Shown here piece after piece: positions 36,789-62,267 of a stretch of 64,000 nucleotides of DNA. The stretch lies in the NCBI GenBank assembly GCA_000091205.1, contig AP006501.2. The stretch is one strand, 5' to 3'. The DNA is from Cyanidioschyzon merolae. Its lineage: Eukaryota. The position numbers and the translations under genes were made by a program. Position 1 is the first letter of the stretch, and the number at the start of each line of letters is the position of its first letter. The notes beneath the pieces were generated by a model, which saw only the letters and a list, made by a program, of their open reading frames with translations, was not told where the DNA came from and made no database searches.

Positions 36789-37526
36789 TATAAGGATTTC
36801 TCGTCTTTCTTGTTCCGGCAGTATGCAATGACGGGCCTCCGGGATCCCCAGCTTTCATGTTCATACCTTTTCTCTTAGATTATTTATTTTTTCAAATGAT
36901 AGCGCTTGGGATACATTTTCAATACCTGCGAAAACGCAAATGATTTTACGCTCCTGGGCCTGGAGTATCATTGAGATAGGAGCCTATAAGAAGCAGTCGG
37001 GGTTGAAGCACTGATGCGAGACACACGCCTGTGGCTTTTTTAATGAACAGGCACGCAGAGGCTATGCAGAAATATCATTGCTCACATGAGATCCCCTGCG
37101 AATCCTATGCTTCCTAACCAAGTTCCGAAATAGGAAGATCACAAGAAACAGAAAAACGATCAGGAGCTGTGCAGGACGCAGAGATTTGCTGGGTACTCGC
37201 GTTCTCGAGACGCTCTACATAGATATGGATTTCCAGCAATGCCAAGTCACAATCGGAAGCTAAATCAAGAGCCATGAACTCTCAATCGATATCATGGGTA
37301 GGATCTCGCCATCCAAAGCGACCGCTCTAGCGAGCAATCACCATCTGAGGTCGTACCAAGCGCCAAAAACATCTCGCTAGCTACCGTAAGGAAGCGCTCG
37401 CCATCACCAAGAGGTCGCCCCGGCGAGCCGCAACCCTCCAGTGCAGCACCGGGGGTATCCACGACGGCTTTTGTCATCGACGCTGCGTTCGGTGTCGAAT
37501 CCTGCCTCAAACAATGCTCCACCACA

Positions 37527-42654: not shown

Positions 42655-45600
42655 CTACGAGAGTAGATGCCGATCCGCCATAAGCCGGACGTCAGCGGAG
42701 AGGTCCGGTGTCGACTCACTCGATGACGAAGCAAAAGTGTTTGCATCTCCAGTGTCCAGTGCAACATGCCCCTCGCTGGGAAACGTTGCCAATCTCACTG
42801 GACCAGAGGATACGAAAGAAGCGCTCTGCTCCCGTTCAGCAGTACGTGGCGCCTCCGACGCTACCCGAGCCGTCTCTGCGTTTGTCTCCACAGACGTGAT
42901 GGAGTCTTCGGCTGGAAACCGTGATAGCGGTCGTGAGCGCAATGAATCCTCGAAAAGTGGATCCGAAACACCTCCGGGACCCACACCAAACGCTGCTACC
43001 AAGTCATGAATCCGAGGATCCGCCGGATCAAACCATACCAAGGTAAACTGCTCCGCGGACGCACTCGCCTGCTTTGCACGTGAGCTGAGCTTGCGCTCAC
43101 CACTGTATAGATCCAATGGTGATGCCAGACGTTTGGGCACTCGAATAGAGGCCTGTCCGAGCCGTCCCATGGATAAACTTCTCGAATTCGCATCGGACAA
43201 CAACGATGCTTCCCCAGTGGTACCCGTTCTCGCTGCATTCGTCTCTGGTGCTACCGACCGCGGCAGCGCAGGTGCTACATCCAGTCGGATTAATGCCGGT
43301 GCATCCACTCGCCGTCGCAGCAACGTCCCAGAAGACGCACCCTCGGACTCGGCAACAGTGATCAGGTTTGGGTCTGGCGGGTGCCAACGAAGACCTCCCG
43401 AGGACACCGTCTGGGCTGCTGCCGGATTCGCAGCAGCCGTGGAGTGCAACAAGGACCAGAGGGCTTCATTTTCGGCACGTTGTTCATCGTAGAGGCCAGC
43501 TTCCCCACGCTCCTGAGCTTTGGTGTCAAAGAACAACGGCGTATCGGAAGGCGTGACTACGAGCACTCGACAGCGCACCGGCAGCGTCTCACAGGGCGCA
43601 TGAAGCTCACTCTGGTACTGTCCCAGACAACCATAGCGTTTGCAGAGCGGACGAGCGTGTTGCAGTTGTCGGGCTCCCTCGCCGTCGCAAGTCTGGAGGT
43701 AGACGGTTCCCTGGAGAAGGATGACGACAGCGGAGCGAAGGCGTCGTGCAATACACTGACCATGCAACGGCCCGGAGAGCGTCCCTGGGAGTAAGCGCGG
43801 CATTGCCCACACAACGAGCGTAGCTGTTCGCAACGGCAACAACATGGCGTCTCGACGCTTTTCGTAGTCGAGCGCCTCGGGTGGAAACAGCATTGTCTCG
43901 GTTGCTACTGTGCCTGGGTTCTCGTACATTGCAAAAGACGCATCTGGGAGGCGACTGCTTGTATCGCGCGTCTCGACGTGCGCTCGTGTGCCAGGACGCG
44001 TCACTTGAGCGCTCTCTGGTGCAGCGTTATCCGCTCCGAGGGTATCGGTACGAGCAGCGGCGAGTCCGTTGCTCTCTGGGGGCGTCTCTGCGTCATCGGC
44101 AGGCGACTGCACCGACGTCGACGACCGCTCTGGTTGGCGCTCCGTACTGGGTCGATCCCGTCGCTCCAGTTCCATGAAGCGCATACGCGTTTCCGTGAGG
44201 TACTCTTCCACGTTGGGCACGAGGTTGCGAGCACACTCGCTAGCAGCCATGCGTACGGCGAGTCGCATCCAGTCGTCCCGACTGCTCATGAGATTCCTGA
44301 AATTCGATGCTGGAATGAAGAAGACATGGGCCAGCTGGGAGACAACCACCAGCTCCAACGCCGACGTATACCTATACAACGAACCCGCCATGCCATAGCT
44401 CTGTCCGGTTACACTGTTGCTCAGGGTACGCACTTCGTGGGCGTCCTCTCGGGGGAATCCAGAGGCCGGCGCAGAAGCTTCCAAGTCTGGTGGTATGTGT
44501 TTGTGCTCGTGGTTGAGCGCTCCCGATGACGGTGCTGCGTCTCTCAAGCCGTGTGGAAAGGCACCAGCTTCCGCGGAGGCAGCGTGCCAGACGACTTCCT
44601 CTGCGTCCGCTGCTATCGTTCCATCGTCAGCAAAGTCGTCATCGTCATCGTCGACGACGTTGCTATTGCTGGTGTAGCGATCGTCCCGCTCTCGACGACC
44701 AGCTATTCCGAATACGTCGCTGATGAAGGCTCGCAGACGTGCCTCGGCAGCGCGTCGACGCGACGGCAGCGTGGCGGAAGGGACTGCTTCTTCGCCGGGG
44801 TATGGAGGCTCGACCATATCCCGAGGCGTTGCAGCGGTTTCTTCTGGCTGACGCCGTTGCCACCATCGCCATCGTCGCCAAAGTGTCGACTTGCGCTCAC
44901 GCTCTTGTCCAAGATGACTCGGCAGTGTCAAGGGCGCCTCGGTGGACCGCTCAGAACTAGCAGGGGCAACGACACCCGCCAGTGGCGCTGCGGACCCAGT
45001 CTCTGCTGTTTCCACTGCTTGTGGCCAGACTGAGGTGGTTGTTGGCTTGCGACGAAGCGGTGGAAACTCCTCCTCACTCAGAAGGTTCGCAATCATCGCT
45101 GACTGCCGTTGGATGCGATCCACGGGTGTCCGTTGCACCGCAGGGTAACTGCTTCGCAGTCCATTGTGGCGCCCTAAAGTGCCGTGTCGCGCCTGGTGGT
45201 CCACTGCCTGCATGTCTTGTCGCTGCAGCAGTAACTGCTCGTCCAGGTCGTCGAGATCATCACCAGCGAACTCGACATGCTGGGTCCGTACCTCGATCGC
45301 TCCTCGAATGACGTAAAAGACACCCACCACGAGGGTATCCATCCGTTGCACGACTTCGCCATGTGCGAACGCTCGTATTTGGCCTGCAGCTCGCCAGGCA
45401 GCGAGCAACTGTTCCAGTGCGTGTTCGAGAGCGACCCTCGAGCGATACTCCACTTCCAACCAAGATGCAAGACTGTTGCGCAAGCAGTCACCGATGGTTG
45501 GCAAAGGAAAACGTATGCTCACGCGCTGCAGTGCCTCGCGACGCATATCCAGCTGGTCCAACAGTGCCTTGGACTCGGCTTCGGTAAGCGTTCCAGTCGC

Positions 45601-48600
45601 ATACAGCTCCTCGATGAGGCGAGCTTGTCGACTCAGCAACACGTTCGCGGCATGCAGCGAGTCGCTCGCGCGTACCGTCTCCGGTGACAGCACCCGCGAC
45701 GAATGCAAGTAGCTCTCGCAACGGGCAACTTCCGCTTCCAGTTCAATAGCGACTTGCAGGTCTGCAATGAGCGTCAGGGAACCGTGTGGATCCGCGGATA
45801 CCCAATCAGTGCTGTGGACCATAACCACTGCCGCGGTATCCGCAGCGATGGTGGCTGCTCCCGGCGGGCTGCGCTCAGCCTTCTCGAGTGCCCAGCGTTC
45901 AGCTTGCTGGGCATGCCGAGAATGCAGTGCATGAACCAGCGCTACGGTCAAGCCTGATACAATGTCATAACCGATAAAAAGCCGGCGATAGATAAGCCAT
46001 CGGGCAAAGCGATGAAGAAAGCGGAAACGCCCACAGATCCCTACGATAAACTGTTCGAGACGGGAGAGGCCCCAACCGCCGGCCTGCGTGTGACTGAAGA
46101 CCCGAATCTCGTCGGTGTTCGTGGGATTGCTCACCTCGTCCATGGAACGATCAATAGCGGCATTCAAGAGCCGATAAGGTGTCATGGACATGGAACCAAT
46201 TAGAAACTGTTTCTGGACAGCAGCGCGCATCGCTAGGAGTGCTCTGCGACGTGACTCGTTCAGCTGGTGCAGAAACACAGCAGTTGCAGGAGGCCTGCGG
46301 TAACGGCGCGAGTGCTGTTGTTGTTGTCGTCGTCGTCGTTGGAGGATGCTGGAGCGCTCAACAGCGCTGCGTTCAGGTCCGATGTTCGTCGTCGCTGTTG
46401 TCCAGCGTACGCTTCTGGGACGGGCGCCCGCAGCAGCTGCAGTCATCCGCCGAGATCGCCCAGTTCGAGGCTGCTTTCGATCAAGTCGCAACCACCAAGG
46501 TCGTTGAGGAAGCCAACGGTTTCGCGCTTTGGCTACCTGGTGCTGCCGTTCGAGCTGAAGGCTCCGGCTGAGGCGTTGCATCTCGCGAGAATGGCGCTCC
46601 CGCAACGCCTGTGAGCCCGACATTCGATACTCCACAGAGGCACGCGGTACCGCTAGGGAAACTCGCGGTGGTCGAGCCACAACCAGTTGTGGCAGTGATG
46701 ACGAGCGCGGCAAACTCCCTTGGAGGCGCGCACTGACCCCGGGCATGGTGCCGTCACTAGTCCTCCAGGCTGCTGATGTTGCAGTAGCAGCAGCAGCAGC
46801 AGTAGTGGCGGTGGCGGTGGCGAGGATGGTGTTTCCTGCACTATTGCCCGAGTTGTTTCCAAAAGCGCTGTTCATCGTGTTCCCTGCAGCGTTACCAAAG
46901 CTGCTTCCAAAAGTGCTACCCATGGTACTCCTTGCAGTGCTCCCGGGTGCTGGCATCGTGACGAGATTGCCAGTACTTTTCGGATTTGTCGAGGTGTCAC
47001 TTGTACCCGGTGTGATACTGTTGCTCGGGTTGCTGTTGGTATCCATTAGTTCGGGCCCTGCTGCTGATGCTGTCCAGTGTGCTTCATCTGGTTTTTGGGG
47101 AGGCAAACGCTCCTCCATGTCGGAACTGGACGAGACGCCCATCACTTTGTTCGTGTCGCTGGCGATCGATATGGAGTCGGGGTGCTCACTCATGAGCACC
47201 GGTGTGCGAGTCGCCTTGCTCACGAGCGCCCGCACCTGACCCACCCGCAGCAGCAACCTGGATAGCTCTGCGGGCAGAATCGCCACTTGCCCCACAAAGA
47301 CCCAATCCGCAAACGTAAAGCGACTCGTGCGCTGCATGTCGAGCAGGATATCCAGCGCCTTTGCATGTAACCGCCGTACTTGGGCGCGAAACGTTCGCAC
47401 CTGTGCAGCGGAACGATTCAAAAGACCCAACCAACCGGCAACCGTTTTAATGGTTGGTGCCTGAACCATCAGCGTCATCAGTACAATGGTAGCCGTCCAG
47501 AGTTGAACTCGTGCATTCACGTAGGTTCCGCCCTGGATATTAGGTTCATGGAAGACAATCTGGGCTGCAATGAGCGAAATAGCACCGCGGAGACCGACGT
47601 GAACAATCAAGAGCGCTTCCCGCCACGTGAGTCCGTAGCGACTGCGTCGTAACACCGGATAGAGCACCACCACTGCGATCAGGCGACTGAGGTAGAGCAC
47701 TGGGTAGAGCACGAGGCCGTACGCAATGGTCTTGCCGTCGATACCGTGACGACCCCAGAATACGATCAAATTCACAACTGCAATGAATCCTGCGTATGTA
47801 AAAGCGATCGCATTGATGATCATCGAAATGACGGACCAGAAAGCGAGCAACGAATCCTGGAACTCAGGTGTCAACGAAGCAAAGCGATCCGCTCGAAGCA
47901 CCAGTCCGAAAGAGGCCACAGCGACAATGCCAGAGACGCCACAAGGACTCTCGCCGACATAGAAGACCAGGTACGAGAGCACAAATGTTGAGCCAATTTC
48001 GATTGCCGCATCCTTCCAGACTCGACGGAGGAAGACAAGTGTAGGGAGCGCGAAGGCAATTCCCAGTGCGAGACCTCCACCAGCGAGTCGCAGCAACTGC
48101 ACAAAGATGGCTCCAATCGACTGAGACGCATTCGGCTGCAGCCGCGTCAAAAACAGCACAAAGAGCGTGAACCCAGAGCCGTCATTAAACAAGGATTCGC
48201 CCTGGATCATCACCTGCAATGGTGTTCGAATGCCGCTTCCTTCGAGCGCCATGTTTACAGCCAGCACGTCAGTTGGCGAGATGAGCGCTCCGAACATCCA
48301 GCCAGCGTTGAGGCTCCACGGCGAGTCAGTCAATACATACGTGGTAAAGAAGGCGAGCAGGGCGGCGTCAATCACGACGAGAATCATGCTGAGGGCGAAG
48401 ATTTGCAATAAGAGGTTGCTGACGGTCCACCAGTCGATGAAGAGGGCGCTCTCGAGAATCAGCGGTGGTAACAGCACATAGAACAACACCTCGGGGTTGC
48501 GCACGTCGACCCAGTAGTTGAGCGAGGCAGACAACTGGGCCAAGTTCAAATAGCAGCCAGCAACGCCAAAGATGCCACCTGCGATGACCAGAGGAAAAGT

Positions 48601-48849
48601 ATACGGCACGGGTAAACGGTAGTGATCCAGCACGCTCTTGAAAGCGTATGCCAAGAGCACGGCTAGGATCGGAAACAATAGGATCATAAACGTTGACGGG
48701 GTCCATTCGGTGAACCCGTGACATATTGCAAAGATTTCCTCACCTACAGGGTCTGTTTCTGCTGCGGAGGCCGCCAGGTTTGTTCGAACGAGGGTAGCGG
48801 GCCCACGCAGCAGGTCGCTTTCGCTCGGGCACCAAGCACTCGTGTTCAT
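42655..48849 (-). CDS. Na+/H+ exchanger (CPA1/NHE family) with a ~1500-aa C-terminal extension containing cyclic-nucleotide-binding-like segments; 2064 aa, single ORF
   Basis: The N-terminal ~480 aa form an NHE membrane domain (..FTEWTPSTFMILLFPILAVLL.. LPPLILESALF.. GALISPTDVLAV.. GESLFNDGSGFTLF..). The C-terminal region has CNBD-like beta-roll starts (AFAHGEVVQRMDTLVVGVFYVIRGAIEV) and tails (ALELVVVSQLAHVFFIPASNFRNLM), with poly-Q/Ala/Thr low-complexity linkers. It is a paralog of 51138..58208. Confidence 0.8.
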   Translation of the reverse strand: MNTSAWCPSESDLLRGPATLVRTNLAASAAETDPVGEEIFAICHGFTEWTPSTFMILLFPILAVLLAYAFKSVLDHYRLPVPYTFPLVIAGGIFGVAGCYLNLAQLSASLNYWVDVRNPEVLFYVLLPPLILESALFIDWWTVSNLLLQIFALSMILVVIDAALLAFFTTYVLTDSPWSLNAGWMFGALISPTDVLAVNMALEGSGIRTPLQVMIQGESLFNDGSGFTLFVLFLTRLQPNASQSIGAIFVQLLRLAGGGLALGIAFALPTLVFLRRVWKDAAIEIGSTFVLSYLVFYVGESPCGVSGIVAVASFGLVLRADRFASLTPEFQDSLLAFWSVISMIINAIAFTYAGFIAVVNLIVFWGRHGIDGKTIAYGLVLYPVLYLSRLIAVVVLYPVLRRSRYGLTWREALLIVHVGLRGAISLIAAQIVFHEPNIQGGTYVNARVQLWTATIVLMTLMVQAPTIKTVAGWLGLLNRSAAQVRTFRAQVRRLHAKALDILLDMQRTSRFTFADWVFVGQVAILPAELSRLLLRVGQVRALVSKATRTPVLMSEHPDSISIASDTNKVMGVSSSSDMEERLPPQKPDEAHWTASAAGPELMDTNSNPSNSITPGTSDTSTNPKSTGNLVTMPAPGSTARSTMGSTFGSSFGNAAGNTMNSAFGNNSGNSAGNTILATATATTAAAAATATSAAWRTSDGTMPGVSARLQGSLPRSSSLPQLVVARPPRVSLAVPRASVEYRMSGSQALRERHSREMQRLSRSLQLERQHQVAKARNRWLPQRPWWLRLDRKQPRTGRSRRMTAAAAGARPRSVRWTTATTNIGPERSAVERSSILQRRRRQQQQHSRRYRRPPATAVFLHQLNESRRRALLAMRAAVQKQFLIGSMSMTPYRLLNAAIDRSMDEVSNPTNTDEIRVFSHTQAGGWGLSRLEQFIVGICGRFRFLHRFARWLIYRRLFIGYDIVSGLTVALVHALHSRHAQQAERWALEKAERSPPGAATIAADTAAVVMVHSTDWVSADPHGSLTLIADLQVAIELEAEVARCESYLHSSRVLSPETVRASDSLHAANVLLSRQARLIEELYATGTLTEAESKALLDQLDMRREALQRVSIRFPLPTIGDCLRNSLASWLEVEYRSRVALEHALEQLLAAWRAAGQIRAFAHGEVVQRMDTLVVGVFYVIRGAIEVRTQHVEFAGDDLDDLDEQLLLQRQDMQAVDHQARHGTLGRHNGLRSSYPAVQRTPVDRIQRQSAMIANLLSEEEFPPLRRKPTTTSVWPQAVETAETGSAAPLAGVVAPASSERSTEAPLTLPSHLGQERERKSTLWRRWRWWQRRQPEETAATPRDMVEPPYPGEEAVPSATLPSRRRAAEARLRAFISDVFGIAGRRERDDRYTSNSNVVDDDDDDFADDGTIAADAEEVVWHAASAEAGAFPHGLRDAAPSSGALNHEHKHIPPDLEASAPASGFPREDAHEVRTLSNSVTGQSYGMAGSLYRYTSALELVVVSQLAHVFFIPASNFRNLMSSRDDWMRLAVRMAASECARNLVPNVEEYLTETRMRFMELERRDRPSTERQPERSSTSVQSPADDAETPPESNGLAAARTDTLGADNAAPESAQVTRPGTRAHVETRDTSSRLPDASFAMYENPGTVATETMLFPPEALDYEKRRDAMLLPLRTATLVVWAMPRLLPGTLSGPLHGQCIARRLRSAVVILLQGTVYLQTCDGEGARQLQHARPLCKRYGCLGQYQSELHAPCETLPVRCRVLVVTPSDTPLFFDTKAQERGEAGLYDEQRAENEALWSLLHSTAAANPAAAQTVSSGGLRWHPPDPNLITVAESEGASSGTLLRRRVDAPALIRLDVAPALPRSVAPETNAARTGTTGEASLLSDANSRSLSMGRLGQASIRVPKRLASPLDLYSGERKLSSRAKQASASAEQFTLVWFDPADPRIHDLVAAFGVGPGGVSDPLFEDSLRSRPLSRFPAEDSITSVETNAETARVASEAPRTAEREQSASFVSSGPVRLATFPSEGHVALDTGDANTFASSSSESTPDLSADVRLMADRHLLS

Positions 48850-48984
48850 GGAGAGCGACCTGAGCGACGCCCCGGGCGTGTGTTACAGCTTACCTGATTT
48901 TCGTTCAAAATTCAAACAACAAAGGTGAGCATCCGTTGTTCATGGCTGTGCGCTTGAAGCCAATGTGCCAACCAGGAGGATGAG

Positions 48985-49016
48985 GAGCAGCAGCAGCAGC
49001 AGCGCAGCAGCAGCGC
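48985..49016. repeat. (CAG)n-rich microsatellite just upstream of the NHE paralog-1 start codon
   Basis: gagcagcagcagcagcagcgcagcagcagcg read directly at 48985-49016. Confidence 0.8.
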
Positions 49017-49149
49017 GATACGGACGAACGAACGGCACCGGTGGCGTTCAACGGCATTCATGCTGGGCTACCTTTCGAAGCTCTGCTGAGGAACGACGAG
49101 TTACTTGGCGAGAGAGTTGCAATTCGTGGACGGAATTAGTTAGGAAAAA

Positions 49150-49590
49150 GTGAAAAGGAAGATTTGGATAGCCCAATAGAGCGAGTGCGGGAAGAGTGTA
49201 CGGAATAAGCTGAAAGTAGCAAGCTCTGGAGAACCGGGAGAGTGCCTTGAAAGCTCTGGATAGTCGCATAGACGAAGCGCACGTTGGAGTGTTAAGGTCT
49301 TTTACAAGTAAAAAGCTCAGAAAACTAGAGACACTACGTTGAAGGCTCTGGATCGTCCAACTGAATTGATGCAAGCCTGGGGGTATTAGCGTAATCTGAA
49401 AGCTCAGAAGATTCGAGACACGACGTTGAAGGCTCTGGATCGTCCAACTGAATTGATGCAAGCCTAGGGGTATAAGCGTAATCTGAAAGGGGAAAGCTCA
49501 GAAAATTCAAAATACTGCGCTGGCGGGTTTGGATAGCCCAGATGAAGCGATGAAGGTCGAATCCGTTGTCCGATCTGAAACGAGCACTTC
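49150..49590. repeat. ~87-bp tandem satellite, about 5 units; the two central units are ~95% identical and the flanking units are degenerate
   Basis: acgttgaaggctctggatcgtccaactgaattgatgcaagcct[g/a]ggggtat[t/a]agcgtaatctgaaag..ctcagaa.attc.a.aca at 49336 and 49423. Degenerate copies are at ~49163, ~49249 and ~49500 (recurring ..gctctggat..gtc.. and ..aagctcagaaaa.. cores). Confidence 0.8.
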
Positions 49591-51137
49591 GCTGCTCGCC
49601 TGCACCTTGACTATCGCTTTTTTCCGACATTTTCTGATGTACAGCCTCGACAATTGAAGTATAGCAATAAGGGCTTCGGGATGATGCATATGAAGTTCCA
49701 GGATTCTCGTTTGCCTTTGCGGAGTCGCAGCTGTGACGCTGCCTCTGGAATTCACGAAACCATGGACGTCAAGATCATTCGCGACACCCTAGAAAACGGG
49801 TTCGTTCTGTACCCGATATCAGGATCCAGTTCAAAAGCGCAAGCCTCATCGCTGCTCTCTTACTTTGATGTAGCATGCTCAAATCATGGATTCTTCAATG
49901 TTTGGGATCCTTCTGTTGCAAGGCAACTTGGGGGCGCACCAATTCGCGCCCCAGCGTGGACAAGGCGAAAAACTCGACATCTTCTCTCTTGAGGACGTCT
50001 TCACCAGCTCATACCGATTGTGCACTGTACTTGCCTCGTCAAATACTCGACACCGTTCGAAAGCCAAACCGCCATTTCTATGTGGACATTGATGAAACCG
50101 GACTCGACAGCTGCGTGATGCCTCGCTCGGAATGTGGTACCCGAGTCTCCCGTCTTCTCTCTAGGGATGGAGAACCGTCCAGGACTCGGAGTTGGGTTGT
50201 CGGAGCGATCGCTTCGACCGAGGCGGGCTCCACCGCGTGGTACAACGGCAGCGCTCAGGGGCAGGAACTTCTCGGTATCTACTCCAGCAGGATGTTTCCT
50301 TCCTGTATGTGTTCCATCATGGACAATACCGCATACCAAATTCCTTGTATCCAATGGAAAATCGTGCCCTTGTGCGTAGAGCGGACAAAGCATTCGCCAG
50401 AGGGATCACCCATAAGCAGCACGTGATCCTAGGATACGGTGCCAGGCGTGGAGAAGCGGGTACGGTATCGAGGCGCGTCCGCGCTACGCTTCATGGACGT
50501 GTACAGAGCGGCGAGGCAAGGCGTTCACGCGCCACATGGCGGCTCCTGGAGATAGGATGTATGGCGGACATACGAGAGCACCTGACCGCAGTCCAGTGTC
50601 ACCGCTGAGAAGCGCACACTGAGGCTGTTACCATGGACGCTGAAAATAGCGTGCGAGGCATAGCTCGCAACTACCGCATGTGCATCAATTGCGTCGATCA
50701 TAGCAAGAAGCTGCGAAATGTGCATTTGAACGCTGCCACCAACATCCCCGCACTGCTCACGAATATGCTGGAGCGCAAGGCGCGATCGGAGGACTTCAAG
50801 CCGTACATGAATGACAGGGAAAGCAAGCAGAGGCAGGAAAACCCGCAACAGCTGGTTTTGATCACATCTTCAGCATGGGAAACATCGAGATTGAACGCCC
50901 GAGTTTGCCAACGGGACGATTTCAGATGGAGTCTAACAGAGGCGTCAAACAATGTCGCGGCCATGCCCTTGTTCAAAAAAATGTCGTTCCACAAGCGTCT
51001 GATGGACAAGCACGGCGAAGCGACGCTTTCATAGAAAGCAAATGTAATGCTTCTTCCTGGACAGAGACGCGTCATCAAGGAGGCTCTCGTTCCATATCTG
51101 GATGCGAAAACGTCTTCAAGGATCTCGTTGTCTACTC

Positions 51138-54100
51138 CTAGAACATGTGTTCCCGTGCCATGAGCTCTGCATCCCGCTCTAGCTGACGCCGATCCGGTGT
51201 ATTCGATTCAAGTACTTCAGAAGCTGGATCCGTGACCGCAGGGATGCTCCCTGCATCTTGTTCTGCAGAGAGGAAGGACGACGAGCCTTCCAGGACGGTG
51301 TCCGATACGCTGCGATGTGTCTCCCGCAGGTCTCTGGTCTGCCAAGGCGGTGCTTGGCCCGTGCTCCCCCCGCGGTACACCACCGGAGTGCCAGTTGCAG
51401 ATTCCTCGAATAGCAGTTGCAGGCCTGTATCCTCAACAGGATTGGCGACCTCTTCACTGTAGTTCGCTAGGATATCGACCAGTTCGGATCGAGAACGTCG
51501 CGGTGGGCGAGTATGTCGGTGTCGCCAGAGCTGCTGCTCAAGTTCCGTTTCCGTTTCCGTTCGGTGTTTCTGCTCGAATTGACGCATCCAAGGGCCAGCA
51601 ATGGATCCAGCATGCCCTCTGGTCTGTTCCGAACGTTCCCGGTCAGCAGACTCGGACGGAAACGTTTCGGTTAGAGAGACCATTCCGGACGGCAGCGTCC
51701 AGCTGCGTAAAAGCCCAGGACGCGTGCCACTTTCGCCAGCCGCTTGTCCGATAAAGCGCTCACCACTGCTGCCATCTGAACAGGTAGGATGCAGCGCATC
51801 CGTCCCAGCGCACATGATATCAGCGGGAACAGTGTTTCCGGGCTGGTCTACTTCACTCGGTTTCGAGATACGCGAGGTGTCGCTCATGGGTGCCGTCGTC
51901 GTCGAAAGTCGCTGTGCTCCTCTCCCGCGCCGACTGCTGACCCGCTCACGAGCCGCAGCCAAACGTTGTAACCGTAATGCACTCTGTACAAGGCGCTTTC
52001 GCTCCTTTTGGAGAAGAGGCTGGTTCAAATCCATCCACAGGAAACAGGGAGAAGTGGCGGTTTTCGATACAGCCGAAGCAACTGCATCGTTTCTGTCTGA
52101 AGCGGCAGCAGCAAAGAGCGCAACATCCTCACAGGGGCGAGCGCAACTCGCAGCGAAATGGTCCAGGCGAAGTACTGCTGGTGCGGAGACTCGACCCGCC
52201 CAGGTTTGCCACTCAGAAAGCGGTGACGGAGCATCGCCGCTGAGACTGCTCCTGTTGCCACCGCTATCGGTGATTTTGCCAGTCCCTGTACTGCCGTTTC
52301 CGTCGCTGCTGGTGCTACCAGGTCGTAACCGCTGCTGCGGCAGGGTTGCGTCATTTGCCTGGTGTAACGCCACTGAAGCAACGGACGCTTTCTCGTGATT
52401 GCTCAGAAACTGCAAAAGTGAAGGAATCGCGGCACCACGCAAAACAAGAAGCTTCGCAGGGGGCATTCCATCCGGCAACAAGAGCCAACGTCTCGGTTTT
52501 GTGTCTACTCGACGCGACGCATCCGCGCTCCGTATACCGCCAGCAGGCTGGACATCTGCTTCCCCTGTTACGGCGCTTTCGTGTTCGCGCTCAGCAGCGG
52601 GAGACGCTGACCCGCGCTCAACACCAGTACCTGTTTGGGAACTCGCTGTCGGCATCAGTGGCGCTCGATATCGCTGGAGCCACGGCCCCGCAGGTGTATC
52701 TGAGCCAGTCTCAGGAACGAACGCATCCTGCAGGATCTGGGCACCGTAAGCACTGGTGGGACGAATCTCCAGCGTTCCCGTAAGGAGTATCAGAATAAGG
52801 GACGGGGTTGCAGGTTCCAGCAACGGCACGTTCACAGCGCAGATGCCCTCGTGCACATGATAGACGCGTTCGTAGAGGCCGTACCAAGCCAGTGCACCCG
52901 TTACGTATACCTGATAGCGCAGGTTTGCTCGATCATCAGTGGAGCGTGAAGCGTCCAGCCACCACGGTGCTGCCTGATCCGAACGCTGCAGATAATCATA
53001 CATCGTGAACGAGTCCTGACGTGGTGGAAGCAGAGGTCTTCGTGTTGGGCGCGCTGCGGCACTGTGCGAACCTGCTTCAGTGGATGCTCCGGTTTCTGGG
53101 CGCTCTCCAAGCACCAGCGGTTGACGATCTACCAACGTTGTCGGAGCGGGTGTTGTTGGTTCGGGTCTCGTGGGCGCCCTGGTATCCAGCGGTACGCCAG
53201 ATGCAGCCAATGGCGTCGTGGCTATTGCGGCATTACCGCCGGCGCTTTTCGAAGGTATCCCCGCAGCTGCCGTCGTCGTCATCGTGACAAGTGCGGCTGC
53301 TCGTTGTTCAGACTCGGTTAAGGCTGCATTCCGGAGTGACAGCTCTGGACAAGTAACCGACTCTGCCATGTGTTCAGAATGTGGCCGTTGCAGCGCATGA
53401 AGGCTGTTTCCGTTACCGTCTTCCGTAACTGCAATCTGGTAGAGTTCAGAGAAGAACGTCTCCAGGCCCGGGATAAGGGCATCCACGAGCTCCGCGGCGC
53501 CTAGTCGGAGCGCCTCTTGCCACCAACCTCGCTCACTGCTCACCAGTTGCTGAAACGCTTGACGAGGAATAAGAAGCACGTTGGCCACCGGACTGGCAAC
53601 CACGAGCTCGTAGGGGTACCGGTGCGCAAATAGGACGCCACCGACACCATGCACATTGCGCAGAGGATCATCGTGACGAAGGAGCGACACCACCTCGTAT
53701 TCTGGGAGAGGGAGCAGGCCCTCCGCAGCTGTGCACTGCGAAGGCGAGGTGGCAAGCGTCAGACGCTCTTGTTCGGGCGCTGCAGCCGACCAGGAAGACG
53801 CAACGAGCAGGGCACCAGGTGTCGCATCGAGCACAGCGGACTCGGTTTCGAGCGCTTCACCTTCCAGTGCATCTTCACCTTCATCATCATCCCATTCTAC
53901 GAGGTCCGTTCCAGGGCGCATCGCCGACGGCGGTGTGCCAGTCGCGCAACGTGCTGTGCTCGAACGCGACTGGTGTGCCCCAGTGTTGCGATGATCCCCA
54001 CAATGATTACGATTATTGCTGCTGATGTTGTTGTTGTTAGTCCAGGTTCGATTCGATCGCATGGCATCCGCCCGACGGCAGGCAGCGCCCTCGCGCTTGC

Positions 54101-57100
54101 CATCAGTGACACCCGAAGCATCTTTCCCATCTCCGCTGATCCAGTCATGCGGAGCAACGGTGAGCGCTTCACTGGACGTTCCTGGAACAGCATGTTCAGC
54201 ATCCCGGGAAGCAGGCTCAAACAAACGCGCGGGAAGCTGTTTTTGTTGGGCATCACGTTGCTCGCCATCTCCTTGAGATGACTGACGACGACGACCACGG
54301 AGACGCTCCCACCAGGGCCACCTCCTCCTCCACCAACGCTGCTTCTGATGATGTTGTTGTTGTTCCTGCTGCTGCTGCTGCTGCTGCTGCCACCACCGGC
54401 GAAGGCCACTAGTGGCCGGGGCACCGTCCGGCACTTGTCTCGCAGCGTCCGCTGCAGGTGCTTTTGCAACGAGCACACCAGTCGCCGAGTCCGTAGCGAG
54501 TTCACCAGTAAAGGTGGCTGCGGCAACCGCCAAGCGCTCCGACGTTGCCCGGAGCGCCTCTTCCGCCTGGTGTTGGTCTCTGCTGATGAGGCGAGCAATC
54601 GCCTGTGTCATTGGCATGTCGATCGCTGTACCGCTCGGGGAGAGCAAGCATGTCGTCGCTTCAGTGCATGTCGACTGCTGCTCTTCGTGGACATGACACG
54701 GCGCAGTGTCTCTGCATCGGGTGCATACCGGAGATACGGCAGGTAGCGCGCTTGTCGGCTGCGCTGCCTCCAGGTCCGGCTCGGAGAGCACCAGGTGAGG
54801 CGCTGGGCCCGGGTGCGCGCTGCGTCGCTGCTGTGAATGCCTCCTAGAGTGCGTCTCCGGTGCCTGGCGCTGCTGCGGAGGATACGATACCGCTGTGCGT
54901 GGTCGTCCAAAGCCAAGGGGAAGGCGTGCTCGCCCTGACGCTATATGCTGCGTACGGCTCCAGTACCAGCGGAGCTCTAGAACACCGTGTGCTACGAGAA
55001 TCACCGCATCTGGTAGCTGAAAACTCGCCTGGAGACGCTCGCCTAGCAGTAACGAGCGCACATGGCCAGCCTGGCGAAAAGCGACATAGAGGCGATACGC
55101 CTGCGCAGAGGCGGAGTTCAGACCACCATCCAGAAGCCTTTCGGTTATCGATGTTGACGTTGTTGCTGCTGTTGCTGCTGCTGCTGGAGCACTCGTTTGG
55201 ACGCTCGTCGCTCCCGCTGGTGCGAAGGATGCGCCTGTAGTGGTGGTGGTGGTGGTGGTGGTTTTCGGGGTGCCCCCTGCTGACGACGACGCTGTCGCTA
55301 GCACAGGTTTGGATCCTGGCGACTGCGTCTCGTGGAACATTGGTGCCGCGGGCTGGAACCAGCGCCGAATACCAGCCTCAATGCGCTTCTCAAACGACGG
55401 AGCCGGAAATCGCACAGAAACTCGCTGCAGAGCCTCTCGCCGCATATCAATCTGGTCCAAAAGACCTCGAAACTCGCGTTTGGTCAGGAGACCCTCCGCG
55501 TACATGATTTCCAGGAGACGCTCCTGTCGACTGAGCATTACTGCGGCTGCTCGCAACGACTCCACAGAGCGTACCGTTTCGAGGCTGAGGATTCGCATCG
55601 AACGAAGATGCTGCTCGCAGCGCTGTAGATCGTGCTCCAGCTCTTGCAAGACTTGCGCATTCGCATGCAGAATCATGGTGAGCAAAAGCACCGCTCGCGG
55701 ATGAGGTTCACTTTTCTCATGTCGAAGCAGGGAATGGAGTGCTCGCATGCATTCGGAATAACGGCTCCGCCAGGCTTGGGCGAGCGCTACCGCCAGTCCC
55801 GACAGCACGTCATAGCCAACAAACAGACGACGGTGAAGCAGTGCCAGAGCCAGTCGATCGAGAAAGCGCACCCTACCCAAGACGTGTATGGCGAGGCGCT
55901 CGTAGCGACGCAAGCCCCAGCCGGCTTTCTGACTGCCCTCACAGAGGCGCAGCGTACCGGTGTGCGGCGCCAGGCATACCTTATCGTTGACGTAGTCGGT
56001 TACTGAGTCGAGGAGGCGGTACGTGACACGACTAATCGACCCAATGAGGTGCTGTTTCTGCACGTTCGCACGCACAGCAAGCAGCGTGCGCCGGCGACTC
56101 TCCATGAGGAGGCGACTGAACGCCGGGGAGTCCCCGAGCTTGCGCTCGAGAGGGAAACGCGTTAGCCAGTGCGCTAGACTTGGAAGCGACTCTTCGGGAA
56201 GGGGCTCTGGCTCTGGAGTTCGGACTGCCCTTGCAGGATTTCCTGTATCCGGCACTGGTCCCGGAGGCAATGATGAGACGCGAGATGCCCCAGTTGCCGT
56301 CTTGTCGGGTGCAGGAGTGCCAGCAGCATCGGGCTGACGTAGACGCGCCTTCCAGATGGCTTCGGCATTCGACCACGGTACCGGAGCGCTGCTGCTTGTC
56401 GTACCGGAGTTCGCGTCATCTCCAGGATCCAGAGACGACGACTCGGGAGAACGGGACGCACAGTCTGGCTCACGCGGCCCAGTTGGTGGCGTGGCTTGTC
56501 CTGGGGGCGCCACTCCGTAGCCGGGCGCCTGCTCCCCGTTCAAGCTCGCTGGAGGATCGTTCCCGGCAGCGGCCTTCGTGTAGCGCGCTGCCAAGTGCCG
56601 AATACGGGCGCGCACCCGCCCTGCACTTAACAGCAGCTCATCGAGTTTGTAAGGTAGAATGGCAGCCTCTTCCACGAATCCCCAATTTGCGTGAACGAAG
56701 CGACTGTGCTTCTGCATCTCCCGCAGCGCCTCTTTGGCTTGCCGGTGAAGACGGCGTACCTGGAGTCGAAACAGTCGCACTTCAGCGGCACTCTGGCTGA
56801 GGAGGCCCAGCCAGGCAGCGACCTGCCTCACTGTCGTTCCCTGGAACAACAGAGTCAGGAGTACGATCATCGAGGTCCACAGCTGAACCCGAGCAGATAC
56901 CACTGTACTACCGCGAATGGAAGGCGTATGGAAGACAATCTGGGCGGCAATGAGAGAGATGGCTCCGCGTAGGCCACAGTGAACGATGAGGATGGCCTCT
57001 CGCCACGAGGCCCCGTAACGACCAGTGCGCAGAATAGGAAACAGCGCCACCACCGCCACAACACGACAGAGGTAAGTGACAGGATAGAGCGCTACTCCGT

Positions 57101-58208
57101 AGCCAATTGCCGCGGCGTTCACGCCACTCTTTCCCCAGAAAACAATGAGGTTGACCACGGAGATAAAGCCAGCGTACACAAATGCAATCGAATTGATGAT
57201 ATGCGATATCGCTTCCCAGAATGCATCCAGAGACTCTTGAAATGCCGGTGTGATCGAAGCGATTCGGTCAGCGGAGAACATCACGCCGAACACGGACACA
57301 GCCACAATGCCGCTGCAGCCGCAGGGCCCGTCTGCAACGTAGAACACCAGATACGCCATAACGAGTGTACTGCCGATCTCGATGGCAGCATCTCGCCAGA
57401 CGAGGCGAAGCAGCAGCAACGTCGGGATGCCCATCGCGATACCGATGAGGAAACCGCCACCTGCAAGACGGAAGAACTGCTCTACAAGGTAGCCAAAGGA
57501 GAGATTCGGATTCGGCATCAGACGAGAGAGGAAGACAATGAAGAGAGTGAATCCGGAACCGTCATTGAAAAGCGCCTCGCCCTGGATCATGACCTGGATA
57601 TGCTTCCGCACCGGCGTTTGGGAAAGCGTAAGCGCAACCGCAAGTGCATCCGTTGGCGAAATGAGCGCCCCAAAGAGCCAGCCAGCATCGAAGCTCCAAC
57701 CGGCTGTACCGAACACGTACGTGGTGAATGCCGCCACAATCGCCGCCGAAATGAAAACCAAGATAATGCTTAGCGCGAATTGATGGGGAATGGTATGTTT
57801 CACGACCCACCAGTCAAGATACATGGCGCTCTCGAAGAGAATCGGCGGGAACAGGATGTAGTACAGGATCGTCGGTTTGTCGACGCTTACCCATAGCCGC
57901 AGTGACTCTGACAATTCACCCAGAGGTAGGTAACAACCAGCGACCCCGAAAACACCGCCAAGAATGACAAGCGGAACGGTATACGGTAAGGTCAGTCGGT
58001 ATCGAATGAAAAGGCCGCGAATGATGTACGAGAAGAGCACTGCCAGGAGTGGAAACAGCAGTACCGTGAAAAGCGACGGTGTTCCGGTACGAAAGCCGCG
58101 GCAGGTATTGAATATGGCTGCATCCTCGCTGGTGCTATTCGCGGCGTGAATCACTTGTGTTTGAAGTGCGGTGAGCTTCGAAGCCAACCCCTCAAACGAC
58201 GTATGCAT
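51138..58208 (-). CDS. Na+/H+ exchanger (CPA1/NHE family) paralog 2 with a giant C-terminal extension containing CNBD-like segments; 2356 aa
   Basis: The N-terminal NHE domain is collinear with paralog 1 (FTVLLFPLLAVLFSYIIRGLFIRYRLTLPYTVPLVILGGVFGVAGCYL.. vs FMILLFPILAVLLAYAFKSVLDHYRLPVPYTFPLVIAGGIFGVAGCYL..). Shared downstream blocks include ESRRRTLLAVRANVQKQHLIGSIS, GWGLRRYERL.. and LLDQIDMRREALQRVSVRFPAP. It contains poly-Q, poly-T and poly-A runs from trinucleotide repeats. Confidence 0.8.
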   Translation of the reverse strand: MHTSFEGLASKLTALQTQVIHAANSTSEDAAIFNTCRGFRTGTPSLFTVLLFPLLAVLFSYIIRGLFIRYRLTLPYTVPLVILGGVFGVAGCYLPLGELSESLRLWVSVDKPTILYYILFPPILFESAMYLDWWVVKHTIPHQFALSIILVFISAAIVAAFTTYVFGTAGWSFDAGWLFGALISPTDALAVALTLSQTPVRKHIQVMIQGEALFNDGSGFTLFIVFLSRLMPNPNLSFGYLVEQFFRLAGGGFLIGIAMGIPTLLLLRLVWRDAAIEIGSTLVMAYLVFYVADGPCGCSGIVAVSVFGVMFSADRIASITPAFQESLDAFWEAISHIINSIAFVYAGFISVVNLIVFWGKSGVNAAAIGYGVALYPVTYLCRVVAVVALFPILRTGRYGASWREAILIVHCGLRGAISLIAAQIVFHTPSIRGSTVVSARVQLWTSMIVLLTLLFQGTTVRQVAAWLGLLSQSAAEVRLFRLQVRRLHRQAKEALREMQKHSRFVHANWGFVEEAAILPYKLDELLLSAGRVRARIRHLAARYTKAAAGNDPPASLNGEQAPGYGVAPPGQATPPTGPREPDCASRSPESSSLDPGDDANSGTTSSSAPVPWSNAEAIWKARLRQPDAAGTPAPDKTATGASRVSSLPPGPVPDTGNPARAVRTPEPEPLPEESLPSLAHWLTRFPLERKLGDSPAFSRLLMESRRRTLLAVRANVQKQHLIGSISRVTYRLLDSVTDYVNDKVCLAPHTGTLRLCEGSQKAGWGLRRYERLAIHVLGRVRFLDRLALALLHRRLFVGYDVLSGLAVALAQAWRSRYSECMRALHSLLRHEKSEPHPRAVLLLTMILHANAQVLQELEHDLQRCEQHLRSMRILSLETVRSVESLRAAAVMLSRQERLLEIMYAEGLLTKREFRGLLDQIDMRREALQRVSVRFPAPSFEKRIEAGIRRWFQPAAPMFHETQSPGSKPVLATASSSAGGTPKTTTTTTTTTGASFAPAGATSVQTSAPAAAATAATTSTSITERLLDGGLNSASAQAYRLYVAFRQAGHVRSLLLGERLQASFQLPDAVILVAHGVLELRWYWSRTQHIASGRARLPLGFGRPRTAVSYPPQQRQAPETHSRRHSQQRRSAHPGPAPHLVLSEPDLEAAQPTSALPAVSPVCTRCRDTAPCHVHEEQQSTCTEATTCLLSPSGTAIDMPMTQAIARLISRDQHQAEEALRATSERLAVAAATFTGELATDSATGVLVAKAPAADAARQVPDGAPATSGLRRWWQQQQQQQQEQQQHHQKQRWWRRRWPWWERLRGRRRQSSQGDGEQRDAQQKQLPARLFEPASRDAEHAVPGTSSEALTVAPHDWISGDGKDASGVTDGKREGAACRRADAMRSNRTWTNNNNISSNNRNHCGDHRNTGAHQSRSSTARCATGTPPSAMRPGTDLVEWDDDEGEDALEGEALETESAVLDATPGALLVASSWSAAAPEQERLTLATSPSQCTAAEGLLPLPEYEVVSLLRHDDPLRNVHGVGGVLFAHRYPYELVVASPVANVLLIPRQAFQQLVSSERGWWQEALRLGAAELVDALIPGLETFFSELYQIAVTEDGNGNSLHALQRPHSEHMAESVTCPELSLRNAALTESEQRAAALVTMTTTAAAGIPSKSAGGNAAIATTPLAASGVPLDTRAPTRPEPTTPAPTTLVDRQPLVLGERPETGASTEAGSHSAAARPTRRPLLPPRQDSFTMYDYLQRSDQAAPWWLDASRSTDDRANLRYQVYVTGALAWYGLYERVYHVHEGICAVNVPLLEPATPSLILILLTGTLEIRPTSAYGAQILQDAFVPETGSDTPAGPWLQRYRAPLMPTASSQTGTGVERGSASPAAEREHESAVTGEADVQPAGGIRSADASRRVDTKPRRWLLLPDGMPPAKLLVLRGAAIPSLLQFLSNHEKASVASVALHQANDATLPQQRLRPGSTSSDGNGSTGTGKITDSGGNRSSLSGDAPSPLSEWQTWAGRVSAPAVLRLDHFAASCARPCEDVALFAAAASDRNDAVASAVSKTATSPCFLWMDLNQPLLQKERKRLVQSALRLQRLAAARERVSSRRGRGAQRLSTTTAPMSDTSRISKPSEVDQPGNTVPADIMCAGTDALHPTCSDGSSGERFIGQAAGESGTRPGLLRSWTLPSGMVSLTETFPSESADRERSEQTRGHAGSIAGPWMRQFEQKHRTETETELEQQLWRHRHTRPPRRSRSELVDILANYSEEVANPVEDTGLQLLFEESATGTPVVYRGGSTGQAPPWQTRDLRETHRSVSDTVLEGSSSFLSAEQDAGSIPAVTDPASEVLESNTPDRRQLERDAELMAREHMF

Positions 58209-61079: not shown

Positions 61080-62267
61080 ATGGCTAGCTCCGGACCTGTA
61101 TGCAACACCTTGGGGGTGAACAACTACAGTAACCCCTTGCATATCGCTGGTCTGTTCGTGATTCTCTGCGGAGGTTTCCTCGGCGCCTTCCTGCCAGTTG
61201 CTGCCAAGCGTTACCCGTGGCTGCGAATCCCTGGTATGGTTCTCCAGCTTGGTCGTGCTTTCGGTACTGGCGTCGTGATCGCCACAGGGTTTGTGCATAT
61301 GATGCCGCCTGCCTTGGCAAACCTGAGCGACGCTTGTCTGCCGGGGTTCTTCACCGACACGTACAACTCGCTTGGAGCGGCGATCGCGCTGGGCGCAGCG
61401 CTCTTCATGCAGTTACTCGAGTTCAGCGGGCGAGTTTATATTGGACGCTACATGGATCGAATTATTGCTGAGCACGCAGCGGCTCGAAAAGCGCTGGCGT
61501 TTTCGGCGAAACAAGCGCACGCTCAAGTGCCTTCGGAGGAAGGCACGCTCGCAGCGCTTGCGCCCGACCCCGAAGCCGGCACACTTCAGGGAGCCAGCGC
61601 TCTGCAACCAGACAACGCTGAAAGCATTCAGCCGTCACCAGGCTCTGAGTTGTGCGCCTGCGCGGTAGAAGAGCCGGTTGTGAAAACGCAATTAATGCAC
61701 AGCGAAGGTTCGGCGCTTTGCTCCCTAGCACTGAGCGACGAGGATCGCTCGGATGAAAAGAAGCTTCTCGATAAGGCAGAGCTGCGCAACCTGAAGCTCA
61801 TTGTGATTATTTTCGAGTTCGGCGTCGCTGTGCACTCGGTCATCGTGGGGCTGGACTTTGGCGTCAGTACTGGACAAACGGCGGTGACGCTCTTTGCTGC
61901 GCTCATTTTCCATCAGTTTTTCGAGGGTGTGGCGCTCGGAACGACGATTTCCGAGGCCGGTTTCGCCTGGTGGCTCGTCATGCTCATGGTGATATCGTTT
62001 GCGCTCGAGACTCCAGTTGGAACCGCGATCGGCATGGGCATTTCGCGGGCCTACAACCCGAACTCGGTGGCCTCGCTGGTGATCCGCGGCGTTCTCGATG
62101 GACTCTCCGCAGGTATCCTAATCTATACAGGTCTGGTGGACCTGTTGACTTACCGGTTTACGCTGAACACGGAGCTCCATAAGCAGCAGCTAGTCTGGGT
62201 TGTTCTGACGATCGCGTTCGTCTGGGCCGGGGCCATCGGCATGAGCATCATTGGGGCTTGGATCTAA
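61080..62267 (+). CDS. ZIP family (ZRT/IRT-like) zinc/iron permease
   Basis: 395 aa with an ATG start and multiple TM segments. ZIP signature motifs HSVIVGLDFG and FHQFFEGVALG are present, with a variable cytoplasmic loop (residues ~120-230) between TM3 and TM4. Confidence 0.85.
   Translation: MASSGPVCNTLGVNNYSNPLHIAGLFVILCGGFLGAFLPVAAKRYPWLRIPGMVLQLGRAFGTGVVIATGFVHMMPPALANLSDACLPGFFTDTYNSLGAAIALGAALFMQLLEFSGRVYIGRYMDRIIAEHAAARKALAFSAKQAHAQVPSEEGTLAALAPDPEAGTLQGASALQPDNAESIQPSPGSELCACAVEEPVVKTQLMHSEGSALCSLALSDEDRSDEKKLLDKAELRNLKLIVIIFEFGVAVHSVIVGLDFGVSTGQTAVTLFAALIFHQFFEGVALGTTISEAGFAWWLVMLMVISFALETPVGTAIGMGISRAYNPNSVASLVIRGVLDGLSAGILIYTGLVDLLTYRFTLNTELHKQQLVWVVLTIAFVWAGAIGMSIIGAWI

Follow-up and report, generated by a model that had tools for sequence, protein, structure and literature searches.

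Two giant tandem Na+/H+ antiporter paralogs of Cyanidioschyzon merolae with a probable SOS1-type layout and a split CNBD-like domain

Plant SOS1 (AtNHX7), a protein of about 1150 aa from the NhaP/SOS1 clade of CPA1 (7y3e, 8jd9, 8iwo, 8j2m), extrudes Na+ at the plasma membrane and carries a C-terminal autoinhibitory tail that is released by SOS2/CIPK24 phosphorylation. Its architecture, in which a Na+/H+ exchanger (NHE) membrane domain is followed by a helical cytoplasmic domain and a cNMP-binding-domain (CNBD)-like domain without a voltage-sensing domain (VSD), has been described for SOS1/NHX7 (PMC10372031). The sperm-specific NHE SLC9C1 (8pcz, 8u6z, 8xpq; CNBD, 9ydf) also possesses coupling helices, a CNBD and a beta-CTD. 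In addition, a four-helix VSD is located between its coupling helices and its CNBD, and its phosphate-binding cassette (PBC) is a functional cAMP-binding one. The beta-CTD that follows the CNBD of SLC9C1 is itself CNBD-derived, and an unresolved linker of ~30 aa separates the coupling helices CH2 and CH3 (PMC10620091). In a published survey, the combination of NHE and CNBD was considered specific to the green lineage (PMC7573149), whereas the host of the two genes described here is a red alga.

We analysed a window of 64,000 nucleotides from contig AP006501.2 of C. merolae. Two uninterrupted ORFs on the same strand, gene A (42655..48849, 2064 aa) and gene B (51138..58208, 2356 aa), were found exactly where the initial annotation had placed them. 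Both encode SOS1-like Na+/H+ antiporters of about twice the length of SOS1. All positions given below refer to the window, and the features encoded by both genes lie on its minus strand. The two translations agree residue for residue with C. merolae 10D XP_005538812.1 (BAM82776.1, UniProt M1UWU5) and XP_005538813.1 (BAM82777.1, UniProt M1VHF6), respectively. The reference genome already lists both as "probable sodium/hydrogen antiporter", with the same single-CDS models. Within the library that was searched, no functional work on the two C. merolae genes was found, and a tRNA scan of the locus returned no tRNA.

The N-terminal Na_H_Exchanger domain expected in both proteins was recovered by Pfam (PF00999) at the 1e-39 level. 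It comprises aa 65-470 of A (47440..48657; 136.7 bits, E 1.2e-39) and aa 59-465 of B (56814..58034; 136.3 bits, E 1.6e-39), covering profile positions 5-374 of 375, with a gathering cut-off of 26.2 bits. In phmmer searches, the membrane domain of A matched SLC9C1 with an E value of 2e-54 and SOS1 with 7e-48, and that of B matched them with 8e-52 and 2e-50, which makes SLC9C1 the best membrane-domain match. NHE1/3/6/9 were far behind (1e-9 or weaker, compared with 1e-48 to 1e-54), and the best PDB sequence matches of both proteins were likewise SLC9C1 and SOS1. The membrane domains are thus closer to the SOS1/SLC9C type than to the NHE1-9 and NHX1-6 types. The motifs SxTD, ESLxNDG and GLRGA are invariant across the family and align with their SLC9C1 counterparts, so that the transport-site motifs are common to both; in gene A they are found as SPTD (48256-48282), ESLFNDG (48172-48201) and GLRGA (47572-47595). 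Known NHE structures assign these motifs to the ion-binding site, to which they contribute a TD in the unwound crossover helix, an ND motif and a transmembrane Arg. By their PF00999 scores and these residues, A and B belong to the CPA1 Na+/H+ exchangers, with a conserved ion-binding site.

With PF00999 in both proteins and alignable blocks in the same order, the two genes are indeed giant NHE paralogs arranged in tandem. Identity between A and B is 55% over aa 39-620, 45% over A859-1132 and B697-952, and 36% over A1485-1553 and B1520-1588, while the linkers between these collinear blocks are unalignable; the proposal that the paralogs share the NHE domain and several downstream blocks and diverged mostly in the linkers agrees with this alignment. 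In the phylogenetic tree, the A clade and the B clade each received 100/100 bootstrap support and each contain several Cyanidiales lineages, with P0014, P0015 and P0010 as the closest outgroups to A and B combined. The tandem B-to-A order and the flanking synteny are kept in a related species. The pair does represent the tandem duplication suggested at the outset, but that duplication is ancient rather than recent, and it is conserved across the Cyanidiales.

With regard to the cytoplasmic region, the first conserved helices after the membrane domain of A (aa 471-545; 47215..47439) are equivalent to CH1-CH2, or to the start of the alpha-CTD. The conserved block reaches aa ~540, and phmmer aligns A with SLC9C1 and SOS1 as far as aa ~518. 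Further downstream, aa 856-1135 of A (45445..46284) and aa 694-952 of B (55353..56129) form an alpha-helical cytoplasmic domain (alpha-CTD or coupling helices). A profile of this domain (A3) retrieved 18 proteins, fragments included, from 1.8 billion representatives, and matched P0009, the cluster representative of B, with an E value of 2e-128. Among the distant proteins, ten were scanned by Pfam, and six of them carry PF00027 directly downstream of the A3 match, four above the gathering score. P0020, one of the A3 matches, aligns contiguously with Arabidopsis SOS1 over residues 36-861. The same profile found nothing relevant directly among PDB sequences, and the cytoplasmic domains of A and B gave no direct sequence match to SOS1; the link to SOS1 is therefore transitive or structural. 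The alpha-CTD comes directly after the membrane domain as in the SOS1/NhaP type, and it is homologous to that of proteins combining NHE and CNBD. The latter include compact proteins of metagenomic or other eukaryotic origin (P0010, P0014, P0015, P0020 and P0026; 1065-1243 aa) in which a homologous helical domain is directly followed by a CNBD with little or no insertion. One of them, P0015, has an 'AHVFF(L/I)P' strand in common with the A/B family.

The CNBD-like domain is split in both proteins. In A, an N half composed of alphaA and four beta-strands (aa 1141-1192; 45274..45429) is separated by a disordered insertion of ~285 aa (aa 1193-1477; 44419..45273; AF2 pLDDT <50) from a C half containing the remaining strands, a degenerate PBC and alphaB-alphaD (aa 1478-1564; 44158..44418), as delimited by the AF2 model and by PF00027 and hhalign alignments that span both halves. 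In B, family alignment, including that with the N half of A, places the N half at aa 1033-1090 (54939..55112) and an insertion of ~420 aa at aa 1091-1510 (53679..54938), and the C half follows at aa 1511-1590 (53439..53678). The beta-roll motif that the initial annotation had counted at least two or three times per protein corresponds to A1161-1188 and B1053-1080 in the N half and to A1485-1521 and B1520-1556 in the C half. Both motif halves belong to a single beta-roll, which is real but supported once per protein only.

Insertions of 285-420 aa within the roll explain why domain scans miss it. PF00027 gave no match in the intact proteins A and B even at E<=1, PF00999 being the only Pfam domain reported, so that the Pfam scan on which the claim of a C-terminal CNBD had been staked formally speaks against it. 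When the insertion was spliced out, PF00027 became the sole Pfam match in 7/7 family members, at 11.9-17.6 bits and in every case below threshold. Spliced A scored 17.5 bits (E 0.004) and spliced B a very weak 11.9 bits (E 0.23), restricted to the C half; no match of A or B, intact or spliced, reached the gathering score of 27.5 bits. A profile of the spliced domain (A2) aligned with the bona fide CNBDs of the A3-retrieved relatives over 84 columns across both halves (hhalign E 8e-5, probability 60%), and it falls on the position of PF00027 in P0015 and P0026.

The presence of a CNBD fold and the absence of a VSD had led to the suggestion of a distinct class of cNMP-regulated exchangers with two or three functional CNBDs. 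We consider such a class improbable. Its architecture is not distinct, since the same layout is known from plant SOS1/NHX7 (PMC10372031), and SOS1 and SLC9C1 rank first in the structural comparison described below. The PBC is also at odds with it. Aligned with true CNBDs by hhalign, the cassette is interrupted by a gap of 6 residues at the position of 'IGE..', and the Arg is replaced by Ser, Ala or Pro. Several compact relatives (P0020, P0016, P0021 and P0019) score above the Pfam threshold and have retained a canonical GE...PR(A/S)AT cassette. The SOS1 cassette has lost the same Glu and Arg as A and B. These two residues, missing from the shortened cassette, normally hold the cyclic phosphate, which makes canonical binding of cNMPs and regulation by them unlikely, and every PF00027 match being sub-threshold points in the same direction. 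The CNBD-like domain of A and B thus follows the alpha-CTD with non-conserved cNMP contacts, as in the SOS1/NhaP type.

The additional CNBDs required by a cNMP-regulated class would have to be sought in a conserved beta-rich region further downstream (A, aa 1636-1965, 42955..43944; B, aa 1732-2063, 52020..53015), which aligns between the paralogs and contains motifs conserved in the family alignment. In favour of such copies, this block has a superficially similar 'ILVLLQGTLELR' strand pattern, and the beta-CTD of SLC9C1 provides a precedent for a CNBD-derived domain at this place. Nevertheless, a second or third CNBD (A~1700-1860, B~1800-2016) was dropped, as six tests revealed no CNBD similarity. 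In hhalign, the probability was 1% with the CNBD-like profile of the family itself and 0.08% with true CNBDs, and Pfam at E<=10 reported no PF00027, only a single chance-level match (NAGPA, E 0.076). A PDB profile search found nothing relevant, no match to the compact relatives emerged from a local hmmsearch, and Foldseek with a dedicated AF2 model of the block (pLDDT 43) gave nothing better than E=4. The block sits at the beta-CTD position after the CNBD-like domain, with low AF2 confidence and no sequence or fold match. It is possibly a beta-CTD equivalent, and any CNBD ancestry could only be that of the CNBD-derived beta-CTD known from SLC9C1/SOS1.

The CNBD resemblance as such could be a chance pattern combined with over-prediction by AlphaFold, the region then being a lineage-specific beta-rich domain unrelated to CNBDs. 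The sub-threshold scores of all PF00027 sequence matches, the hhalign probability of only 60% and the shallow alignment behind the AF2 model would fit this explanation, which we nonetheless regard as very improbable. A alone was modelled (aa 855-2054) from a 9-sequence alignment, with a low overall confidence (mean pLDDT 46) but a pLDDT of 80-90 in both CNBD-like halves, with strands at model residues 303-335, and the model displays a complete CNBD fold. In a Foldseek search of the PDB with this model, each of the top 31 matches was to a chain of SLC9C1 or SOS1 (E 2e-7 to 2e-4), and CNBD channels came next. The predicted CNBD-like domain superimposes on the isolated SLC9C1 CNBD (9ydf) with 2.4 Å over 128 residues.

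The gene models could also be wrong, with the low-complexity stretches being introns or the ORFs fusing separate genes, so that the CNBD-like halves would not be in one protein. The linkers are indeed poorly conserved and of biased composition (A/S/R/T/P-rich). Linker 1 of gene A (aa 546-855; 46285..47214), which is rich in S/A/R/T/P and unalignable between the paralogs, occupies the site of the SLC9C1 CH2-CH3 linker; compared with SOS1, A and B carry insertions of 150-420 aa in this linker and inside the CNBD-like roll. However, the coding frame contains 0 stops in every linker (76-419 codons), while the other five frames usually contain several (0-18): 3-11 in linker 1, 4-10 in the CNBD-like insertion of gene A and 3-18 in the 419-codon insertion of gene B. 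In at least three Cyanidiales lineages, the orthologs likewise remain single ORFs (1700-2360 aa) whose insertions occupy equivalent positions, and the reference annotation gives identical single-CDS models for A and B. Cyanidiales genomes have very few introns, and both CNBD-like halves are needed together for the predicted fold. The stop counts in each frame and the structure of the orthologs accordingly led us to reject introns and gene fusion, which are highly improbable; the linkers are, on this evidence, most likely translated.

Trinucleotide repeats, to which the linkers had initially been attributed, were rejected as their origin. TRF detected just two pure codon runs of ~25 nt, both in gene B: a Q8 run in the insertion (CTG x8; 54366-54390) and a T9 run (GTG x7.7; 55240-55262). 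It also reported a short 9/12-nt array in gene B (55159-55186) and a weak period-12 array inside the TM domain of gene A (47686-47716). Short conserved helices or motifs occur within the insertions, including RRQSAMIANLLSEE, KRLASPLDLYS and, in the CNBD-like insertion of gene A, the helix RIQRQSAMIANLLSEEEF (45064-45117). The disordered tails also carry short conserved motifs, of which KRLASPLDLYS is an example in the A clade, and motifs of the forms RRxS and RxxSP are conserved as well.

After aa ~520, the hydropathy scan revealed no cluster of hydrophobic helices, the S4 motif scan no RxxRxxR run in a hydrophobic context and Pfam no Ion_trans in A or B, in keeping with the absence of a voltage sensor noted in the initial annotation, and the hydropathy and motif scans led us to discard the idea of a cryptic sensor or S4. 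An SLC9C-type exchanger whose sensor has diverged beyond recognition is scarcely credible: the TM domain does score slightly higher against SLC9C1 than against SOS1 and an Arg-rich helix (RFRFLHRFARWLIYRR) in the helical block adjoins the hydrophobic stretch A957-975, but this is at most one moderately hydrophobic segment, against the four required for a VSD, AF2 models the region as long soluble helices, the CNBD-like domain of A starts a few residues past the helical block and leaves no room for S1-S4, and Pfam does find Ion_trans in P0011 and P0012.

Taken together, we estimate a probability of roughly 0.78 that A and B are ancient tandem paralogs whose products belong to the SOS1/SLC9C branch of CPA1 and act as Na+(Li+/K+)/H+ antiporters, with an SOS1-type layout, no voltage sensor and no cNMP regulation. 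Each protein would consist of an NHE membrane domain of the 13-helix type, in which the ion site is intact, a helical 'coupling' domain, a CNBD-like roll, a beta-rich region and a long disordered tail. Their size, about twice that of SOS1, is explained by the inflation of three loops through translated, fast-evolving low-complexity insertions; the inflated loops would be the CH2-CH3 linker, one hairpin loop within the CNBD-like roll, and the linkers between domains together with the tail. A SOS2-type phosphorylation/autoinhibition motif and a beta-CTD, both known from SOS1, were not identified in A and B. By analogy with SOS1 and SLC9C1, the proteins may work as dimeric electroneutral exchangers, in which the cytoplasmic helical/CNBD-like scaffold would restrain the transport domain at low activity. 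This restraint would be lifted when the disordered segments are phosphorylated or bind a partner, rather than by cAMP or cGMP. What A and B transport, their dimeric state, their autoinhibition and regulation, and the membrane in which they reside are all inferred here. As the external pH is ~2, a Na+/H+ exchanger in the plasma membrane would entail a large risk of acid load, and an endomembrane location is therefore possible.

A more speculative idea, which we regard as rather unlikely, is that the giant disordered insertions in the CH2-CH3 linker, the CNBD-like roll and the tail are functional regulatory modules confined to these acidophilic algae, acting as phospho-switches or autoinhibitory plugs that shut a plasma-membrane exchanger against an inward pH gradient of ~5 units, or that the degenerate pocket senses a ligand other than cAMP or cGMP.

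A and B reveal neither a new class of transporters nor a new mode of cNMP regulation. Their layout of NHE, helical coupling domain and CNBD-like domain without a voltage sensor shows the SOS1 type to be present in an early-branching red alga and, together with the similarity to SLC9C1, supports the view that the cytoplasmic scaffold common to these proteins arose long ago in eukaryotes. As C. merolae is genetically tractable, the two paralogs offer a means of testing how this scaffold gates an exchanger under an extreme proton gradient.

Gene A (42655-48849, 2064 aa) and gene B (51138-58208, 2356 aa) were both found on the minus strand as uninterrupted ORFs, at exactly the positions proposed in the initial annotation. 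Their products match XP_005538812.1 / BAM82776.1 (UniProt M1UWU5) and XP_005538813.1 / BAM82777.1 (M1VHF6) of Cyanidioschyzon merolae strain 10D, respectively, in every residue, which identifies the window as nuclear DNA of this species; both are labelled "probable sodium/hydrogen antiporter", and the reference annotation agrees with the single-exon models. BLASTP recovered three collinear blocks common to both paralogs, as anticipated, with 55% identity over aa 39-620, 45% between A859-1132 and B697-952, and 36% between A1485-1553 and B1520-1588. The stretches between the blocks are rich in A/S/R/T/P and are unalignable between the paralogs. These linkers are translated, because the coding frame is free of stops across the 76-419 codons of each linker, while the other five frames usually carry several stops each (range 0-18); for comparison, all frames of the intergenic DNA meet a stop roughly every 24-48 codons. 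The proposed trinucleotide-repeat origin of the linkers was not borne out: TRF detected just two pure codon runs, both in gene B (CTG x8 encoding Q8 and GTG x7.7 encoding T9), together with one short array of 9/12 nt in B and one weak array of period 12 in A.

With regard to the cytoplasmic region, PF00999 (1e-39) was the sole Pfam match in the intact proteins at E<=1. The significant PF00027 match on which the initial annotation had made its reading depend was thus absent, which formally counts against that reading. Nevertheless, each protein contains one CNBD-like domain, split in two. In a family alignment of A, B and eight homologs, the first half of the reported motif (F..GE.I...GD....FY.I..G.V.V) falls at A1161-1188 and B1053-1080 and the second half (A..LV.....A.V..I....F..L) at A1485-1521 and B1520-1556, with ~285 aa between the halves in A and ~420 aa in B. 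When the insertion was removed in silico, PF00027 became the sole Pfam match in all seven family members, covering most or all of the profile in five and only its C half in B and in the homolog P0008; all scores were below the Pfam gathering score of 27.5 bits (17.5 bits, E 0.004, for A; 11.9 bits, E 0.23, for B). The profile of the spliced region, drawn like the other sub-profiles from Cyanidiales sequences, matched CRP-family CNBDs best among PDB sequences (E 0.036), and hhalign aligned it with bona fide CNBDs of distant relatives over 84 columns across both halves (E 8e-5, 60% probability). It also falls on the PF00027 position of the homologs P0015 and P0026, the former sharing the strand AHVFFLP with A.

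AlphaFold2 models most of A aa 855-2054 as disordered (mean pLDDT 46), with exactly two confident stretches (pLDDT 80-90), A~1064-1189 and A~1479-1564, arranged as helices, four strands, a disordered insertion, and the remaining strands with three helices. The best 31 Foldseek matches in the PDB were all SLC9C1 or SOS1 chains (E 2e-7 to 2e-4), followed by CNBD channels. On the basis of these stretches and matches, the two halves in A are predicted to build one complete CNBD fold, and the modelled helices preceding it can likewise be superposed on the cytoplasmic scaffold of SOS1/SLC9C1. Judged by model strand order, the insertion site would be the hairpin loop past the fourth strand. Within the otherwise disordered insertion, we observed a short conserved helix at 45064-45117 in A (aa 1245-1262, RIQRQSAMIANLLSEEEF) and 54576-54617 in B (aa 1198-1211, MPMTQAIARLISRD); a basophilic-kinase-type R-x-R/K-Q-S motif is kept there in the A clade and missing in the B clade.

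The initial annotation had counted at least two or three such segments per protein; the motif itself stands, as halves of one domain, and additional domains are unsupported. For the conserved beta-rich block further downstream (A1636-1965, B1732-2063), neither a CNBD nor any other informative match came out of hhalign, Pfam, a PDB profile search, a local hmmsearch, or Foldseek on an AF2 model made for this block. Put through the same tests as the spliced region to serve as a control, it reached an hhalign probability of 0.08-1% and no PF00027 match. By its position, this block fits a candidate beta-CTD.

The profile of the helical block A856-1135 found no match among PDB sequences and 18, some of them fragments, among 1.8 billion representative proteins. 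Ten distant matches were scanned with Pfam: seven carried PF00999 and six carried PF00027 directly downstream of the helical match, four of these above the gathering score. P0020, a homolog found with this profile, aligns contiguously with Arabidopsis SOS1 residues 36-861, a span comprising the membrane domain, alpha-CTD and CNBD-like domain. SOS1 is laid out as TMD, alpha-CTD (458-722), CNBD-like domain (732-883), beta-CTD (888-972) and autoinhibitory tail (PMC10372031). SLC9C1 has the same scaffold with a voltage sensor added, and A and B hold their first large insertion at the place of its unresolved CH2-CH3 linker of ~30 aa. Rather than the distinct architecture that had been suggested, A and B represent the SOS1 type in a red alga, greatly enlarged by disordered insertions; the exchanger class is not new, and both genes were already annotated.

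The reported lack of a voltage sensor was upheld, as A and B show at most one hydrophobic segment past aa 520, no S4 pattern in hydrophobic context and no Pfam match to Ion_trans, and the CNBD-like domain of A begins only a few residues from where the conserved helical block ends. An Arg-rich amphipathic helix (GRFRFLHRFARWLIYRR) in the helical domain of A (46000-46060, aa ~930-956) is conserved in the family and adjoins A957-975, the only hydrophobic stretch past the membrane domain. Its identity as S4 was rejected; it could be a membrane-interfacial helix.

A and B are probably active cation/proton exchangers, since SPTD, ESLFNDG and GLRGA, the motifs of the transport site, do not vary within the family and align to SLC9C1. 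On the model of SOS1 and SLC9C1, the helical/CNBD-like scaffold would hold the transport domain in check until the disordered segments are phosphorylated or bind a partner. Cyclic nucleotides, the regulators originally proposed, are unlikely as the signal. The canonical cNMP contacts are absent: aligned with true CNBDs, the phosphate-binding cassette lacks its 'IGE..' part, and the entire family has Ser/Ala/Pro where PR(A/S)AT carries Arg; in the SOS1 CNBD-like domain these contacts, Arg among them, are also non-conserved (PMC10372031). A tail motif restricted to A-clade proteins, KR(L/P)ASP(L/I)DLY(S/N) (43102-43134, A aa 1906-1916), may serve in regulation or be phosphorylated; the aligned position reads RL(V/L/F)QSA(L/R)RLQ in the B clade. 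No functional work on either gene was found in the literature searched.

The only long-form homologs found come from Cyanidiales, namely Cyanidiococcus yangmingshanensis, Cyanidium caldarium and metagenome contigs related to them. P0003 is a C. yangmingshanensis 'Sodium hydrogen exchanger' of 1357 aa, an A-clade ortholog 87% identical in its N-terminal part. Its alignment breaks off near the CNBD-like C half and the protein is cut short, both of which point to a frameshift in that assembly or to truncation of its gene model.

The A/B duplication is old and both copies were retained, because each clade holds several lineages in the membrane-domain neighbour-joining tree (100/100 bootstrap each; the compact proteins P0014, P0015 and P0010 as outgroups) and the B-A order and its flanks are conserved. 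On the related Cyanidiales contig L002 (1-25607, against 25927-38813 and 61080-62267 here), the shared order is ZIP transporter, B, A, a 428-aa protein with no Pfam match, an Exo_endo_phos and GRF zinc-finger protein, a Myb protein and a protein kinase. The B-A spacer measures 2.3 kb here versus only ~0.7 kb in L002; it contains an 87-bp tandem repeat (49312-49489; 2.0 copies, 93% match, perfect register) and a noncoding (AGC)x10 microsatellite (48986-49016) ~140 bp upstream of the gene A start codon.

The NHE+CNBD combination has been stated to be specific to the green lineage (PMC7573149), and A and B run contrary to this. The new point is a modest one: the cryptic split CNBD-like domain takes the combination of NHE and CNBD-like domain beyond the green lineage.
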